From a virus (lineage: Duplodnaviria > Heunggongvirae > Uroviricota > Caudoviricetes), in IMG/VR virus record IMGVR_UViG_2671180885_000005: DNA of 46,052 nt. The stretch is one strand, 5' to 3'. The position numbers and the translations under genes were made by a program. Shown here one piece after another: positions 4,723 through 13,231 of this stretch. The notes beneath the pieces were generated by a model. That model was not told the DNA's origin and did not search any database. It saw nothing but the letters and a program-made list of their open reading frames with translations. Each line of letters opens with the position of its first letter. Within the stretch, counting starts at the first letter, position 1.

Positions 4723-5547
4723 TCAGGCGGTGAAAGTACCAATAAAGGTTTCTACTTTGCTGTCTTTGAATTTCTCAACAAGCAGATCACGAAATTCGTT
4801 AGCCATATCTTCCTGCACCGCTTCCAGCTGAATAATGCGCAGAACCAGTACAGGACGATCGCCAGTGATAATGCTGAGGCGTAATTTAAACGGACGTTCT
4901 TTCAGACCTTCAAACGGAACGCATTTAAATTCAAATGCCACTGGCATAATGTCTTTGGTCTTCGCTTCGACAGATTCCATCAGGGAGCGTTTGCCGCTGA
5001 AGTCATTATCTTCAAAATCAGCGGTCTGGTTTGCTTCAATCGTGATTTTACGGATTGCCGCAGCCGCTTTTGTTGCCTGAATGGCATCACCATTAGCATC
5101 AAAGCCCACAAGGTAGTCGGCCCAGTCTTCGATCCATTCTGCCAGTGACTTCTGGGAGTTACGCTCGCCGTTAACAGACAACAGAGCAGAGAACGGTGCT
5201 GTCTTTTTCAGTTTGAGAGTGGCAGTGTTATCTGCGTGACCTGGCTCATCAATAGTACCCAGGTTAAGCACACTGACGGCACGCATATTATCGGCATCGA
5301 TAAAGCAGCGGGTGCCTTCATCTGCAAGATCTTTAGAATAACGGGTAAAGTCATCGATGCTGGCAGTGGAAAGCGCACCACGGAAACGGAAGCGATTTAA
5401 ATTAAATTTTTCCAGATCATGAATGCGGAAATTCTCAGGCAATGCCACAGCATCGGCACCAATCTTACTGATAATTTCATTAACACCCTGAGCAGAAATA
5501 AGGGCATGGATTTGATTAATTGCGGTTGCGTCTAAGTTCTGAGACAT
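4723..5547 (-). CDS. DUF2303 / YfdQ-family phage protein
   Basis: 274-aa ORF, SD GAGGA before the ATG at 5547; sequence resembles the YfdQ family of E. coli prophages as I recall it. Confidence 0.75.
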
Positions 5548-6575: not shown

Positions 6576-6851
6576 TCAGGAAACAGTTGGCTGATGCTCT
6601 TCGAGTGCGACTTTCTGACCAATTTTCTGAAATGTGCTCTCCGAATTTGGACAAATAGAAAAAGGCCATTTCCATTCAGGGTCTGATGGAAATACTTCAG
6701 CCTGTTCCAAAGCACGGTGTAAAGAGAACACAACTCCAGCCATAATCTGATGTTTCCCATTGGTCCAGCTATCGCCGCTCTGATCTACAGGAGCGGCTAT
6801 GTCGTATGACCAAACGACTTCACCACTATTGTTTAAAATCTGGACTTTCAT
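6576..6851 (-). CDS. hypothetical protein (91 aa)
   Basis: ORF with GGAGG SD before the ATG at 6851, immediately after the upstream minus-strand gene; its 3' end overlaps antisense with the plus-strand ORF 6413..6658, so only one may be real. Confidence 0.45.
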   Translation of the reverse strand: MKVQILNNSGEVVWSYDIAAPVDQSGDSWTNGKHQIMAGVVFSLHRALEQAEVFPSDPEWKWPFSICPNSESTFQKIGQKVALEEHQPTVS

Positions 6852-7168: not shown

Positions 7169-7182
7169 CTAACTTAACTTAG
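7169..7182. promoter_or_regulatory. candidate OL operator (CTAAC-N4-CTTAG palindrome)
   Basis: 14-bp near-palindrome CTAACTTAACTTAG in the intergenic region downstream of the repressor gene; same motif as the two sites between cI and cro. Confidence 0.4.
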
Positions 7183-7247: not shown

Positions 7248-7874
7248 TTAGAGTTCGTATTGAACTCCTTTGACTACACCAATGATAAGGCAATTACCAT
7301 TGATAGGGATGTTGGGATACCGAGGATTTAATGGCACTAAAAACTTTTGAGGGCCATCGATGACTAATTTTTTTACTGTAGCTTCGTTTGTTCCATCAAG
7401 TCGAGCGATGACTATTTTTCCATGACGAGGTTCTGCATCTGGATCTACAATCACTGTTGCGCCTTCTGGTATTGTTGGGAGGCCATTAGGGTTAGTCATG
7501 GAGTCACCTTTAACCTCTAATGCAAATGAGTTATCACCAATCTTTAATGATGTATCTACCCACTTGTCCACTTCACTAAACACTTCTGCTGCCCTGCACT
7601 CAGTAAACTGCCCAGCCTGAACCCACGATATTACAGGAACTCTGCGCATGTTTGTGACGAGTTTGCCTTCAAACTCAGCACCATAAAGAATGTAATCTAT
7701 TGACGTATTGAAGAACTTCGCTAATTTCGAAAGTGCCTCCCCACCAGGGGTATTGATGTCTTTCTCCCAGTACCCCACAGCAACGTCGCTTACTCCACAA
7801 AATTTACCCAATTCTTTCTGGGACGTTCTGGTAACTCTTCTCAGAGCTTTTATACGCTGACCAACCGTTTCCAT
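7248..7874 (-). CDS. cI: CI-like prophage repressor (HTH-XRE plus S24 LexA-like peptidase domain)
   Basis: N-terminal HTH (QKELGKFCGVSDVAVGYWEKD), C-terminal S24 autoprotease motif (GDSMTNPNG...K); divergent from a cro-like gene. Confidence 0.9.
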   Translation of the reverse strand: METVGQRIKALRRVTRTSQKELGKFCGVSDVAVGYWEKDINTPGGEALSKLAKFFNTSIDYILYGAEFEGKLVTNMRRVPVISWVQAGQFTECRAAEVFSEVDKWVDTSLKIGDNSFALEVKGDSMTNPNGLPTIPEGATVIVDPDAEPRHGKIVIARLDGTNEATVKKLVIDGPQKFLVPLNPRYPNIPINGNCLIIGVVKGVQYEL

Positions 7875-7896: not shown

Positions 7897-7910
7897 CTAA
7901 GTAATCTTAG
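7897..7910. promoter_or_regulatory. candidate OR operator site 1 (CTAAG-TAAT-CTTAG perfect palindrome)
   Basis: Perfect 14-bp palindrome in the cI–cro intergenic region. Confidence 0.45.
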
Positions 7911-7945: not shown

Positions 7946-7959
7946 CTAACAAAACTTAG
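7946..7959. promoter_or_regulatory. candidate OR operator site 2 (CTAAC-AAAA-CTTAG)
   Basis: Second copy of the same motif 36 bp from site 1, just upstream of the cro SD. Confidence 0.4.
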
Positions 7960-8761: not shown

Positions 8762-9096
8762 ACAGTTTAACAACACACTACCGTCGCTCGCAACTGATTG
8801 CGCTTCCTGTACCGGGTGGAAAAGCGAAGGTGGAGTATTGCTATGCAGTGAATGTACCAGGTGACAGGGAAATTGTAACCCACAGCTTTGCAGAGTGGGC
8901 TGTGGGTGATTTCAACCGGCAGAAGGAGACAGTCCTTTGCGACAAGTTAACCGCTGGTTCAAAGATCACTACGGAGTGCCCGTCAGAGTCATTCGTTGGG
9001 AGCCGGAAACACAACGGGTTATCTACCTCCGTGAAGGCTATGAGCATGAGTGCTTCAGCCCGCTCGAACAGTTTCGTCGTAAATTCAGGGAAATAG
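8758..9096 (+). CDS. hypothetical protein (112 aa)
   Basis: ORF start overlaps the upstream stop (ATGA), suggesting translational coupling; no recognisable family. Confidence 0.5.
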
Positions 9097-9105
9097 AGGT
9101 CGGTC

Positions 9106-10047
9106 ATGAGCACTAAATTAACCGGCTATGTATGGGATGGTTGCGCAGCGTCAGGCATGAAATTATCCAGCGTGGCAATTATGGCCCGCCTGGCTGATTT
9201 CAGTAATGACGAAGGTGTGTGCTGGCCATCAATTGAAACCATTGCCCGTCAGATTGGCGCGGGGATGAGTACCGTCAGGACGGCTATCGCACGGCTGGAA
9301 GCAGAAGGCTGGTTAACGCGTAAGGCGCGTCGCCAGGGTAACCGCAATGCGTCGAATGTTTATCAGCTTAACGTTGCGAAGCTTCAGGCAGCGGCATTTT
9401 CTCAACTGTCAGATTCTGACCCGTCAAAATCTGACGCATCAAAATCTGACCCGTCAAAATTTGATGCGTCGAAATCTGGCAAAAAAGCGGGTTTTCACCC
9501 GTCAGAATCTGGCGGGGATCCGTCAGTAAAATCAAAACATGATCCGTCAGATAAAAAACCTTCTCGTCCGGACGCTTCGCAACCGGACACGCAGACGGCT
9601 GAACAGTATTTTTTAACTCGCCATCCTGATGCGGTTGTATTCAGCCCTAAAAAGCGCCAGTGGGGGACGCAGGATGATTTGACCTGCGCACAGTGGCTCT
9701 GGAAAAAAATCATCGCCCTGTACGAGCAGGCCGCCGAATGTGACGGCGAGGTGGTTCGTCCCAAAGAACCGAACTGGACAGCCTGGGCAAACGAAATTCG
9801 CCTGATGTGTGTGCAGGATGGTCGTACTCACAAACAAATCTGCGAGATGTACAGCCGCGTCAGCCGCGATCCGTTCTGGTGCCGTAACGTGCTCAGCCCG
9901 TCGAAGCTGCGGGAAAAATGGGATGAGCTTTCCCTGCGCTTATCGCCGTCCGTAAGCACGTACACCGAAAAACGCGAAGACCCGTACTTCAAATCCAGTT
10001 ACGACAACGTGGACTACAGCCAGATCCCGGCAGGATTCAGGGGGTGA
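9106..10047 (+). CDS. phage replication initiation protein (O-like, N-terminal winged-helix)
   Basis: 313-aa ORF; N-terminal DNA-binding region (IETIARQIGAGMSTVRTAIARLEAEGWL); contains an internal array of ~15-bp iterons as in lambda O/ori. Confidence 0.8.
   Translation: MSTKLTGYVWDGCAASGMKLSSVAIMARLADFSNDEGVCWPSIETIARQIGAGMSTVRTAIARLEAEGWLTRKARRQGNRNASNVYQLNVAKLQAAAFSQLSDSDPSKSDASKSDPSKFDASKSGKKAGFHPSESGGDPSVKSKHDPSDKKPSRPDASQPDTQTAEQYFLTRHPDAVVFSPKKRQWGTQDDLTCAQWLWKKIIALYEQAAECDGEVVRPKEPNWTAWANEIRLMCVQDGRTHKQICEMYSRVSRDPFWCRNVLSPSKLREKWDELSLRLSPSVSTYTEKREDPYFKSSYDNVDYSQIPAGFRG
9406..9557 (+). repeat. iteron array (candidate origin of replication) inside the O-like gene
   Basis: Repeated ~15-bp units CCGTCAAAATCTGAC / GCATCAAAATCTGAC / CCGTCAAAATTTGAT / GCGTCGAAATCTGGC / CCGTCAGAATCTGGC / CCGTCAGTAAAATCA / CCGTCAGATAAAAAA visible in the sequence. 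Confidence 0.7.
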
Positions 10048-10049
10048 TC

Positions 10050-10538
10050 ATGAGTCTGTTAAATGACGTTCAGAAATTCATTGAAGCCCATCCGGGGTGT
10101 ACTTCCGGAGACATTGCGGATGCTTTTGCTGGTTACTCACGGCAGCGCGTTCTGCAGTCAGCAAGCAAGTTACGTCAGAGTGGGCGTGTGGCTCACCGTT
10201 GTGAAGGAGATACACGCAGACATTTCCCACGCCTGACTGAGAGAGCGCATGAGCCGGAACCACAACCAGTTCGTGAAACCAGACCTGTGCGCAATTTCTA
10301 TGTCGGCACTAACGATCCCCGGGTGATTTTGTGCCTGACCCGCCAGGCGGAAGAACTGGAGTCCAGGGGCTTATACCGTCGTGCTGCAACCTTGTGGATG
10401 GCGGCATTCCGTGAAAGCCACTCCCAGCCAGAACGAAACAATTTTCTGGCGCGTCGTGAGCGGTGCTTACGGAAAAGCAGCAAGCGCGCTGCATCGGGTG
10501 AAGAGTGGTATCTGTCAGGGAATTACGTGGGGGCTTAA
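10050..10538 (+). CDS. hypothetical protein (162 aa)
   Basis: ORF following the O-like gene, in the position of a helicase loader but without recognisable similarity; ATG at 10050 after a G-rich SD. Confidence 0.5.
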   Translation: MSLLNDVQKFIEAHPGCTSGDIADAFAGYSRQRVLQSASKLRQSGRVAHRCEGDTRRHFPRLTERAHEPEPQPVRETRPVRNFYVGTNDPRVILCLTRQAEELESRGLYRRAATLWMAAFRESHSQPERNNFLARRERCLRKSSKRAASGEEWYLSGNYVGA

Positions 10539-10864
10539 TGACGACGTTAACTCAATGCCAGCAGCAGGTGCTGGATATGCTGATTTCTTACCAGAAAGAA
10601 CGTGGCTTCCCGCCAACCAATCAGGAGGTGGCTACCATGCTGGGATACCGTTCAGTGAATGCAGCGGTGGAGCATCTTCGCGCACTGGAGAAAAAAGGCG
10701 TCATCACGATAAAGCGTGGCGTGGCACGGGGGATAACGCTTCATACCGCGGTGAAGGACGACGACAGCGAGGCGGTCGGGATTATCCGCTCACTGCTTGC
10801 CGGTGAGGAAAACGCCAGGCTGCGTGCAGCCCACTGGTTACATGAGAGGGGCCTGAAAGTATGA
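10538..10864 (+). CDS. LexA N-terminal DNA-binding-domain protein (no peptidase domain)
   Basis: MTTLTQCQQQVLDMLISYQKERGFPPTNQEVATMLGYRSVNAAVEHLRALEKKGVITIKRGVARGITL parallels the LexA N-terminal winged helix (LTARQQEV...MPPTRAEIA...[23 protein letters not shown]); only 108 aa, so the S24 domain is absent. Confidence 0.65.
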   Translation: MTTLTQCQQQVLDMLISYQKERGFPPTNQEVATMLGYRSVNAAVEHLRALEKKGVITIKRGVARGITLHTAVKDDDSEAVGIIRSLLAGEENARLRAAHWLHERGLKV

Positions 10865-11256
10865 AGCTGATCCTGCCTTTTCCGCCCAGCGTGAACACGT
10901 ACTGGCGACACCCCAACAAAGGGGCGTTTGCTGGTAAGAGCCTGATAAGCGCGGCGGGGCGCAAATTCCAGAGCGCGGCGTGTGCAGCAATAGTTGAGCA
11001 GTTACGTCGTCTGCCAAAACCAACGTCGGCACCTGCTTCAGTGGAGATCGTGTTGTTTCCTCCGGATAACCGGATCCGCGATCTGGACAACTATAACAAG
11101 GCGCTGTTTGACGCCCTGACCCACGCGGGTGTGTGGGAAGACGACAGACAGGTGAAAAGAATGCTGGTGGAGTGGGGACCGGTTATCCCGAAAGGGAAGG
11201 TCGAGATCACTATCACTAAGTACGAAAAAGCGAGTTGCAAATTAGCAACTCGGTAA
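10861..11256 (+). CDS. rusA: Holliday-junction resolvase RusA
   Basis: 131-aa ORF with motifs LPFPPSVNTYWRH...RDLDNYNKALFDALT...WEDDRQV typical of RusA. Confidence 0.85.
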   Translation: MKLILPFPPSVNTYWRHPNKGAFAGKSLISAAGRKFQSAACAAIVEQLRRLPKPTSAPASVEIVLFPPDNRIRDLDNYNKALFDALTHAGVWEDDRQVKRMLVEWGPVIPKGKVEITITKYEKASCKLATR

Positions 11257-11418
11257 CGGAATTGAGCAACACCCTAAATTTGGGTATTACCTCGTTAAAG
11301 ATACTGTATTTATGAACAGTGTATCCTTGATAACTATTAAAAATCGCAGTAAGTTCATCCTGCATCAACGAAAAGGGAGTGCAGTCCCGCTCGTGGATAA
11401 AAATTTGTGGAGAAACCA

Positions 11419-12234
11419 ATGAATCAGTTGCTTGTAATTGATGGCGTTTCTGTGCGCCAGTACTTCGAATCTAACTACTGTCTTAACGACCTTCAGAAAG
11501 CTGCTCTTCTTGCCGCTGGTGAGAATCGCTCCTCCCGTTCGCTGGAAGTTCACGAGTTTATGCGTCGTCCTGAAACGAAGGCTCTTGTGGAATTATTGGA
11601 AGAAGAAACTACGGGAGATTCCCGTAGTATTCCTGTCATCACCATTCAGGGGCGCAATGGTGGGACGTATGTCTGTAAAGAGCTGGTCTATGCATATGCA
11701 ATGTGGATCAGCCCGGCATTCAGCTTAAAAGTGATACGTACTTTTGATGCGCTTCATAATTCATCACCAGAAGAAACCACATCCGACAAAATTAAATCCG
11801 GGGTCATTCTGCTTGAATCAGCAGCAAAGACTCTAAATCTGTCAAACTCCTCGAAACTTGGTGCATACCAGAAATTATCAAAGGTAGCTGGTCTTCCTGA
11901 ACTTATGCCGATCTATGCCATTGATGCACCTGCTGATGCGCCAGATGGTTCAAGCCGCCCTACGCTGTCGCTGAGTGCACTGCTGAAGCAGTATGGTATC
12001 CGCCTGACGGCTAATCAGGCATATCACCAGATGGCGAAGCTGGGGATCGTTGAACAACGCGAACGATACAGCCGTACCGCAATTAACAACATTAAAAAAT
12101 TCTGGTCGCTGACGGCGAAAGGCTGCATGTTCGGCAAGAATATCACCAGTCCCGCAAATCCACGTGAGACGCAGCCGCATTTCTTCGAATCCCGATTCCC
12201 TGAGCTGTTAAAGCTGCTCGATACCGTTCATTGA
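11419..12234 (+). CDS. KilA-N domain protein
   Basis: ATG at 11419 after GGAGA; segment GTYVCKELVYAYAMWISPAFSLKVIRTFD matches the KilA-N domain signature. Confidence 0.7.
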   Translation: MNQLLVIDGVSVRQYFESNYCLNDLQKAALLAAGENRSSRSLEVHEFMRRPETKALVELLEEETTGDSRSIPVITIQGRNGGTYVCKELVYAYAMWISPAFSLKVIRTFDALHNSSPEETTSDKIKSGVILLESAAKTLNLSNSSKLGAYQKLSKVAGLPELMPIYAIDAPADAPDGSSRPTLSLSALLKQYGIRLTANQAYHQMAKLGIVEQRERYSRTAINNIKKFWSLTAKGCMFGKNITSPANPRETQPHFFESRFPELLKLLDTVH

Positions 12235-12235
12235 G

Positions 12236-13231
12236 GTGACCGTGAGAGCACTACTGACCCCTGAAATTGCCCCGCGTATGGGGATCGTATTGTTCAGGCC
12301 AGGTTCAGAGCTGATGCCCCTGTTTATGCAGGGGCGAGTCCTGCTGGAGCCTGAGCCGGAACGTTATTCATCTTTCGCCAGTGGTGCCGTTCCGGCGGCA
12401 TCACAACCGCTGGCGGATGATCCTGCCGTTCGGGCCGTGTTCCGCAATGAGGCAGTGATCCGTCGTGCTGGTGGCGTGGAATGTCTTGAAAGCTGGTTAC
12501 TTCGTGAAAAAGGCTGCCAGTGGCCTCATTCCGACTGGCACAGCGAGAACATGACCACAATGCGACACGTGCCGGGCGCAATCCGTCTGTGCTGGCACTG
12601 CGATAACCAGATGCGCGATCAGTTCACGGAACGGCTGGAATCAATGGCAACGGATAACTGTGCCCGCTGGGTGTTGTCTGTTGTGCGTCGGGATCTCGGT
12701 TTTGATGACAGTCACGTTGTGACAATGCCGGAACTGTGCTGGTGGCTGATTCGTAATGATCTGGCGGATGCCTTACCGGAAAGTGCAGCCCGTAAGGCAC
12801 TGAGATTACCGAAGCCTGTTGTGCCGTCTGTTACCCGGGAAAGTGACCTTGTGCCTTCGGTTCCTGCCACCAGCATCATCCTGGATAAGGCGAAAAAGGT
12901 GCTGGCGCTGAAAGTGGATCCGGAGTCGCCGGAGTCTTTTATGTTACGCCCCAAACGTCGCCGCTGGGTTAATGAAAAGTACACGCGCTGGGTTAAGACA
13001 CAGCCGTGTGCATGTTGTGGAAGGCCCGCTGATGATCCCCATCACCTGATAGGTTACGGTCAGGGTGGAATGGGAACAAAAGCGCATGACCTTTTTGTGT
13101 TGCCTTTGTGCAGAAAGCATCACGACGAGCTGCATGCGGATACCGTGGCATTTGAAGAGAAGTATGGCTCCCAACTGGAGCTGATATTTCGTTTTATCGA
13201 TCGCGCGCTGGCGATTGGTGTGTTGGCCTGA
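12236..13231 (+). CDS. DUF968-family protein (YdfU-like) with C-terminal Cys/His motif
   Basis: 331-aa ORF (GTG start); C-terminal CACCGRPADDPHH...CRKHHDELH resembles the DUF968/HNH-like region of Qin-prophage YdfU. Confidence 0.65.
   Translation: MTVRALLTPEIAPRMGIVLFRPGSELMPLFMQGRVLLEPEPERYSSFASGAVPAASQPLADDPAVRAVFRNEAVIRRAGGVECLESWLLREKGCQWPHSDWHSENMTTMRHVPGAIRLCWHCDNQMRDQFTERLESMATDNCARWVLSVVRRDLGFDDSHVVTMPELCWWLIRNDLADALPESAARKALRLPKPVVPSVTRESDLVPSVPATSIILDKAKKVLALKVDPESPESFMLRPKRRRWVNEKYTRWVKTQPCACCGRPADDPHHLIGYGQGGMGTKAHDLFVLPLCRKHHDELHADTVAFEEKYGSQLELIFRFIDRALAIGVLA

Follow-up and report, generated by a model that had tools for sequence, protein, structure and literature searches.

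A virus genome of the Caudoviricetes (IMG/VR virus record IMGVR_UViG_2671180885_000005), analyzed here over a stretch of 46,052 nucleotides that we call the window, encodes a 108-aa protein in which a LexA-type DNA-binding head, the counterpart of the LexA N-terminal domain (NTD), is followed by a short hinge and a helical tail, with no S24 autoprotease domain. We tentatively propose that this LexA-NTD protein is a non-cleavable, tail-dimerized LexA surrogate that would occupy SOS boxes during lytic growth. The more far-reaching claim that a widespread cassette encodes a natural LexA(Ind-)-like repressor, which would re-silence the host SOS regulon from within the lytic program, we consider quite unlikely as a whole. 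The DNA binding, dimerization and regulatory sign of the protein are proposals made from its sequence and a structural model.

The domain and the fold of the head are unambiguous, as residues 1-68 form a full-length LexA-type winged helix. Pfam family PF01726 (LexA_DNA_bind) matched residues 1-65 over the whole of its model (positions 1-65 of 65; E=2.9e-19, 69 bits against a cutoff of 23.7), and the E. coli LexA chains 1lea and 1jhh were matched at E of about 1e-15, without gaps through residue 69. An AlphaFold2 (AF2) model built on 22 homologues, with a mean predicted local distance difference test score (pLDDT) of 81.6 and a predicted template modeling score (pTM) of 0.55, reached a pLDDT of about 85 within this domain and placed helices at residues 6-22, 28-35 and 40-52 and strands at residues 56-58 and 66-68. 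Foldseek superposed the head on 1lea, 3jso and 1jhh at root-mean-square deviations (rmsd) of 1.0-1.3 Å over 67-69 residues with about 50% identity; with respect to the E. coli LexA NTD (1lea/3jso), the fold is the same, at an rmsd of about 1.1 Å and about 50% gap-free identity over 68 residues. PHROG 362, whose name 'transcriptional repressor' is an annotation and not a function established by experiment, aligned along the entire protein (E=1.4e-59, residues 1-108 on profile positions 1-106 of 106). A preliminary description of this DNA, made from the letters and their open reading frames (ORFs), had called a stand-alone LexA N-terminal domain at 10538-10864 from an alignment by eye, and the whole-model profile match and the superposition on LexA bear that call out.

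As the alignment is free of gaps, LexA residue numbering can be transferred directly to the 108-aa protein. Helix 3 of E. coli LexA contacts DNA through Ser39, Asn41, Ala42, Glu44 and Glu45, and cyanobacterial LexAs that use other motifs differ at positions 41, 42, 44 and 45 (PMC3091678, PMC13416735). The recognition helix of the phage protein reads R38-S39-V40-N41-A42-A43-V44-E45-H46-L47 (RSVNAAVEHL), such that four of the five LexA base contacts (S39, N41, A42 and E45) are kept and E44 is replaced by valine. Throughout the extended family, S39 is invariant, N41 nearly so, A42 usual, and E45 present in 7 of 12 lineages. With S39, N41, A42 and E45 retained, it is plausible that the 108-aa protein may occupy SOS boxes.

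The gene itself is real and under purifying selection. Its ORF comprises 108 codons plus the stop, and the ratio of nonsynonymous to synonymous substitution rates (dN/dS) is 0.09-0.15 among close relatives. Compared to relatives at 67% and 45% identity, the proportion of synonymous differences (pS) is about 0.8, i.e., saturated, whereas that of nonsynonymous differences (pN) is 0.20-0.38, and the tail shows this pattern as well as the winged-helix part. The ATG is preceded by a G-rich, Shine-Dalgarno-like run (10527-10533); an alternative start at GTG 10505 was rejected as a mere upstream extension, since all homologues start with MTTLT. Overlapping stop and start codons couple the gene translationally to its neighbors, the PerC-like gene on the upstream side and rusA on the downstream side, and neither a promoter nor an SOS box was found upstream of it within the window, the nearest box lying 440 bp downstream. 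These overlaps and the lack of a promoter gap assign the gene to the early rightward operon, and hence its expression would be expected in the lytic phase but not in the lysogen. It lies in the replication/recombination (nin-like) part of that operon, in agreement with the location given in the preliminary description.

Behind the head, a hinge of low model confidence leads into an acidic stretch, KDDDSE (residues 73-78), which is comparable to the QEEEE of the LexA hinge. The remainder of the chain is a predicted, amphipathic two-helix hairpin. From the sequence, V80, I83 and L87 form one i/i+3/i+4 series in its first helix and A79, I82 and L86 another, while in the second helix A93, A97 and L101 are aligned with W100 alongside. 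A97 and L101 are invariant in all alignments that we made, including those with relatives at 40-48% identity; invariance of L86 and A93, and near-invariance of I82, L87 and W100, is confined to the close family. When 1.84 billion representative proteins were searched with a profile, the relatives at 40-48% identity matched the whole profile, tail included, and were about 105-135 aa long, a few of them carrying N-terminal extensions up to 165 aa. As the tail is kept in distant relatives, it is a conserved structural element rather than read-through junk. We infer from the model that two such hairpins could pair into a four-helix bundle and thereby serve as a dimerization module that replaces the S24 domain. 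Heterodimerization with host LexA, which the preliminary description had suggested might occur, if poorly, has no structural basis, since LexA dimerizes through its C-terminal domain, which the 108-aa protein lacks. Some proteins without an S24 domain (P0137, P0138, P0152 and P0160; about 150-165 aa) instead contain two tandem LexA DNA-binding domains and look like single-chain pseudo-dimers. These putative pseudo-dimers support the need for two reading heads in the absence of the S24 domain.

Cleavage of the 108-aa protein is not to be expected. A Pfam search gave no Peptidase_S24 match in it, the chain ends at residue 108, and the NCBIfam equivalog model for lexA, TIGR00498, was matched over model positions 1-91 of 203 only, with a score of 70.8 vs. 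a cutoff of 110.95. The dipeptide A88-G89 in its LLAGEE segment does resemble the VAAGEP of LexA, but this position is VG or AN in close relatives, has nothing similar in distant ones, and is predicted at the helix-to-turn junction of the hairpin. We therefore rejected cleavage in trans at A88-G89 by host or phage S24 proteins, as the dipeptide is not conserved. With neither a catalytic domain nor a conserved cleavage site in the family, it is a sound inference that the protein is uncleavable, and the earlier wording of an uncleavable LexA-like binder that lacks the autoprotease domain is a fair one.

Taken together with what is known of LexA, these features outline a possible course of events. 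As the gene is coupled in the O-PerC-LexA-NTD-RusA run and has no promoter of its own, its product would appear only while the early rightward operon is active, i.e., upon infection or after induction. The C-terminal hairpin would take over dimerization from the S24 domain, and the dimer would bind LexA-type CTGT...ACAG sites. RecA* would be unable to inactivate the protein because of the missing catalytic domain and the missing conserved Ala-Gly site, and SOS-box promoters would stay repressed, or become re-repressed, while host LexA is being destroyed. The target promoters would be those of the host SOS regulon together with the one at the box before the KilA-N gene (11302-11321; see below). 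Benefits to the phage are speculative and might include fewer error-prone polymerases, less expression of SOS-induced toxins, less colicin lysis, and less induction of co-resident elements that are under LexA control. Other modulators of the SOS response work differently. Gp7 of Bacillus phage GIL01, a mobile-element SOS modulator, stabilizes LexA on DNA and blocks LexA cleavage, and DinI-like and PsiB proteins of mobile elements damp or reshape the host SOS response. All of these act on LexA or RecA by protein-protein contacts, whereas the 108-aa protein would occupy the DNA sites itself.

Two comparisons bear on this proposal. Compared to E. coli LexA, the protein shares the fold, S39, N41, A42 and E45 in the recognition helix, and a short acidic hinge after the domain, but it has a 35-residue hairpin instead of the S24 peptidase/dimerization domain, no conserved Ala-Gly, and a valine for E44; moreover, its gene sits inside a phage early operon and not behind SOS boxes of its own, and its score falls below the TIGR00498 cutoff. 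The second comparison is with engineered fusions. The LexA DNA-binding domain (DBD) alone fails to repress sulA-lacZ in SU101, and the same domain joined to any homodimerizing module represses it (PMC7160566, which cites Dmitrova 1998 for the LexA-based dimerization assay). The 108-aa protein has the same layout as these fusions, with a LexA DNA-binding domain, a hinge, and then a helical module but no cleavage domain, and the repression by such LexA-DBD fusions thus supports the proposal of a tail-dimerized surrogate. The fusions are, however, laboratory constructs on E. coli LexA residues 1-87 with a heterologous dimerizing module, whereas the phage protein has a natural tail as well as a natural head (50% identical), and its dimerization by the tail is a prediction.

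The only strong SOS box in the window, a candidate site for such a protein, precedes the KilA-N gene, in the gap that begins past rusA. A position weight matrix (PWM) that we derived from 31 literature sites for E. coli LexA scored this box at 22.1 bits, vs. a median of 19.1 for the training sites and 19.4 for the best of 200 shuffles, and its core (11304-11319) is the sole perfect CTGT-N8-ACAG in the 46 kb. As a strong box precedes the KilA-N gene, host LexA probably controls an internal nin-region promoter at this point, directed toward DUF968 and Q. We considered the box as a dedicated cis target of the LexA-NTD protein and rejected this, since it follows the KilA-N allele with or without the LexA-NTD gene. 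Among 154 near-identical, E. coli-type IMG/VR loci, the box and the window-type KilA-N allele went together in all cases (19 of 19), including two without the LexA-NTD gene, while more than 128 loci with the LexA-NTD gene and the other KilA-N allele had no box. The commoner KilA-N allele, 67% identical at the protein level, abuts rusA and has no box; accordingly, phages SfII, Stx2a_1447 and 2H10 carry the LexA-NTD gene with a RusA/KilA-N junction of 19 nt and no box. The gap sequence with the box was found in only 5 phage records, as opposed to 63 with the LexA-NTD gene. Inherited with the KilA-N allele and independently of the LexA-NTD gene, the box belongs to the KilA-N cassette and would merely be one more candidate site for a LexA-like binder in the prophage.

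Strong SOS boxes near LexA-domain genes were found in separate lineages, namely the window and SfIV (+764 bp), Edwardsiella phage EPP-1, the distant locus L019, and Hafnia phage yong2, where the box precedes a phage recA. This recurrence, which was seen among gene carriers only and which we do not count as enrichment, is suggestive of a link between LexA-domain proteins and LexA sites. In EPP-1 (L012:2231-2250) and L019 (3480-3580), the box immediately precedes the transcription unit to which the LexA-domain gene belongs, and in the L019 gap a hairpin resembling a rho-independent terminator is followed by the box with a promoter-like region. Such a placement is that of a LexA-like, putatively autoregulatory layout, and the window is without it. 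Boxes also occur at other genes of these phages. In SfII-type cI genes, a near-consensus box, TACTGTTTTTATATACAGTA, lies within the hinge-coding part between the helix-turn-helix (HTH) and S24 domains (…NTVYKNSNN…; L002:2103-2122, L004:1865-1884, and L007:446-465, the cI of Shigella phage SfII), and its reverse complement matches the umuDC box of the PWM training set. An N6_N4 DNA methyltransferase gene lies downstream of Q in many related E. coli phages, and a LexA box overlaps its first codons (MKNTVKINSV; L029:5453-5472, with the gene's ATG at 5445); in L019 a similar box (6739-6758) immediately precedes the start called for the homologous gene. These positions suggest that the phage N6_N4 methyltransferase may be under SOS control.

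Several observations weigh against a surrogate that acts at SOS boxes. E44 is kept in none of the family's lineages, and some lineages have E45 changed (to G, I, L, T or D) or A42 changed, among them L019 (N-T-V-F-I), even though its gene sits behind a perfect SOS box; in a Citrobacter-type lineage the recognition residues have drifted to N-T-I-T-G. The family is thus not uniformly held to LexA specificity, and in view of the E44V replacement and the drift in some lineages, specificity for LexA boxes cannot be assumed. The monomer model, with a pTM of only 0.55, does not give the dimer geometry that the N8 spacing calls for. No cis target is co-inherited with the LexA-NTD gene, and 68 of the 154 close loci lack any strong box within 5 kb. 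That SOS boxes recur may simply be a property of temperate phages at large. Finally, full-text literature searches returned no functional study of an enterobacterial LexA-NTD protein.

The drift in the recognition helix also underlies the main rival, which we regard as somewhat unlikely: a private regulator whose specificity has drifted to an operator of the phage's own, timing, e.g., Q and the late genes, with no effect on the host SOS response. A precedent for this is gp6 of Bacillus phage GIL01, the one characterized phage LexA homologue, which activates the late promoter (PMC6182141). Like the 108-aa protein, gp6 is a truncated LexA DNA-binding domain encoded in a phage early operon; host LexA takes part in the GIL01 switch as well, and gp6 demonstrates that such a homologue can gain a new site, GaCACAn-nTGTGaC, and act as an activator. 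The replacement of E44 throughout the family, and of E45 or A42 in several lineages, would fit the same path, as would the position of the LexA-NTD gene, which shares an operon with Q and, in the loci compared, always precedes Q by two to four genes. However, gp6 is a protein of 66 aa without a C-terminal hairpin, its recognition helix (S-H-K-T-A-H-R-Y, with Lys38 as the key residue) has K, T, H and R at LexA positions 41, 42, 44 and 45, and BLASTP gave no alignment between the two proteins at E<=100, so that we rejected homology to gp6. The 108-aa protein, by contrast, keeps S39, N41, A42 and E45, and at the position equivalent to Lys38 it has Asn41, as in LexA; judged by these residues, its reading head is much closer to that of LexA than that of gp6 is. 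Furthermore, we found no conserved alternative palindrome, CTGT-Nx-ACAG was not enriched in the window at any spacing from 0 to 20, and most of the phages have no promoter gap at the gene, with the genes abutting or overlapping.

It appears improbable that the protein assists the Holliday-junction resolvase RusA as an accessory DNA-binding factor made at a fixed ratio to it, or that it has another role in recombination or replication instead of one in transcription. Such a role would explain why the order [DNA methyltransferase]-LexA domain-RusA-(KilA-N or pRha/ANT protein)-DUF968-Q is kept in lineages at 39-47% identity, why the adjacency with overlapping stop and start codons persists in mEp390, L016, L019 and L020/L021, and why the LexA-NTD gene lies directly upstream of rusA in 74 of 80 close RusA loci. 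Yet the remaining 6 of the 80 (L106, L111, L142, L162, L166 and L172) have rusA without the LexA-NTD gene. In these six loci, the gene that abuts rusA (about 700 bp before it) encodes a protein of about 230 aa ending in …QQAEKLVREMVA, which is presumably a Dam-type methyltransferase. As another gene can replace it, the LexA-NTD gene is an optional cassette, and it and the methyltransferase gene behave as independently optional cassettes. In addition, the shorter and more distant LexA-domain genes of Klebsiella, Edwardsiella and Proteus phages lie in the nin region but do not adjoin rusA (as in EPP-1 and Klebsiella phage ST846), and in L017 a reverse-strand gene lies between the two. A conserved gene order is usual in lambdoid nin regions, and the LexA-type recognition helix favors sequence-specific binding of duplex DNA.

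Slightly more improbable still is an antagonist of LexA, i.e., a protein that competes at SOS boxes without blocking RNA polymerase, or that binds half-sites as a monomer, and so de-represses boxed phage promoters without DNA damage. Such a protein would share the sites of LexA, and boxed promoters do drive nin-region genes in the prophage, L019 and EPP-1. But any bound protein will occlude a box that overlaps or abuts a promoter, LexA-DBD fusions repress, and read-through from the early promoter already serves the nin-region genes. That the gene is a decaying, functionless remnant of a captured lexA, as its likeness to a LexA truncated shortly after the hinge and its VAAGEP-like LLAGEE might suggest, is effectively refuted by the dN/dS values, by a length and hairpin kept at 40% identity despite saturated synonymous sites, and by the presence of the gene in 41% of complete E. 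coli genomes.

The window holds an SfIV-like lambdoid prophage, in which positions 9000-12500 share 98% identity with Shigella phage SfIV and Escherichia phage PhiR49_1, and the features of the region are collected in Table 1. The PerC-like gene adds another small regulator to the early operon that contains the LexA-NTD gene. Within the O-like gene, a 15-bp unit, TCTGACCCGTCAAAA, is repeated 4.3 times at 9415-9478 and encodes a DPSKSDASKS-type linker; these repeats are probably origin iterons, as in lambda O. Palindromes of the form CTAAG-N4-CTTAG, with 4 in the window vs. 0.8 expected, occur at 7897-7910 and 7946-7959 in the cI-cro gap and at 7169-7182 just past the 3' end of cI, and are probably CI/Cro operators. 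The preliminary description had named them as possible targets of the 108-aa protein; the sites are real and located at the cI-cro switch, but they are unlike the CTGT half-site, making such binding unlikely. It had further called the prophage repressor a cleavable S24 protein: the UmuD/LexA-like S24 domain is indeed present in the cI-type repressor, while actual cleavage is an extrapolation from it. The C-terminal two-helix tail, the SOS box 440 bp downstream, and the commonness and prior annotation of the gene had escaped that description.

Table 1. Features of the LexA-NTD gene, its product and the surrounding region (positions in the window; a dot in the strand column marks a feature given without strand).
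Feature	Position	Strand	Evidence or remarks
LexA-NTD gene, 108-aa product	10538..10864, stop included	+	ORF/sequence; Pfam PF01726; PHROG 362; dN/dS
Residues 1-68, LexA-type winged helix-turn-helix	10538..10741	+	AF2 model, Foldseek, gap-free LexA alignment
Residues 69-73, low-confidence hinge	10742..10756	+	pLDDT below 50 at 71-73; alignment
Residues 74-108, predicted two-helix hairpin (helices 74-87, 93-102)	10757..10861	+	AF2 pLDDT about 87; conservation
TAATG overlap: PerC-like gene TAA stop / LexA-NTD gene ATG 10538	10536..10540	+	sequence
ATGA overlap: LexA-NTD gene TGA stop (10862-10864) / rusA start	10861..10864	+	sequence
Strong LexA (SOS) box TACTGTATTTATGAACAGTG	11302..11321	.	perfect CTGT-N8-ACAG; PWM 22.1 bits; KilA-N linkage
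cI-type repressor	7248-7874	-	HTH residues 1-66, UmuD/LexA-like S24 C-terminal domain 77-203
O-like replication protein	9106-10047	+	
PerC/YfdN-like protein	10044-10538	+	Pfam PerC E=8e-9; PHROG 1324 'transcriptional activator'
RusA	10861-11256	+	
Gap, about 160 nt	11257-11418		
KilA-N protein, ATG 11419	11419-12234	+	
DUF968	12236-13231	+	
Q-like antiterminator	downstream of DUF968	+	

The LexA-NTD protein family is known and common, and has a characterized analogue in GIL01 gp6. Of 5426 complete E. coli genomes, 2233 (about 41%) carry the gene at an identity of at least 95%, and the 63 phage records that carry it include SfII, SfIV, SfV, cdtI, mEp460, and Stx2a-, Stx2c- and Stx2k-converting phages. 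Existing labels are 'LexA family transcriptional regulator', 'LexA DNA binding domain protein', 'LexA-like protein' and 'repressor, lexA family', and matches in BFVD indicate that stand-alone LexA-domain proteins are common in other phages too. With a gene this common and already annotated, the family assignment is not new. We also looked at a role in anti-phage defense and rejected it, as PADLOC gave a marginal match only (E=4e-4), of a generic winged helix-turn-helix to a CARF model.

The interest of the LexA-NTD family lies in its prevalence and in a function that is easily put to the test, with Stx2a, Stx2c and Stx2k phages and Shigella serotype-converting phages among the carriers of the cassette. 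If the protein does bind SOS boxes, a large share of E. coli and Shigella lysogens, including carriers of Stx phages, would make a damage-insensitive LexA surrogate whenever the prophage switches on, and SOS-dependent mutagenesis, the release of toxins and colicins, and the cross-induction of co-resident elements would be altered in the induced cells, which would be relevant to antibiotic-triggered induction. The phage would then develop independently of SOS mutagenesis, of SOS-induced toxins and colicins, and of rival prophages under LexA control. If instead a private operator is bound, the protein would be one more small phage regulator. As a surrogate acting at SOS boxes, by contrast, it would mirror, in nature, the engineered LexA-DBD fusion repressors and represent, beside GIL01 gp6, a second and mechanistically different reuse of the LexA head by a phage.

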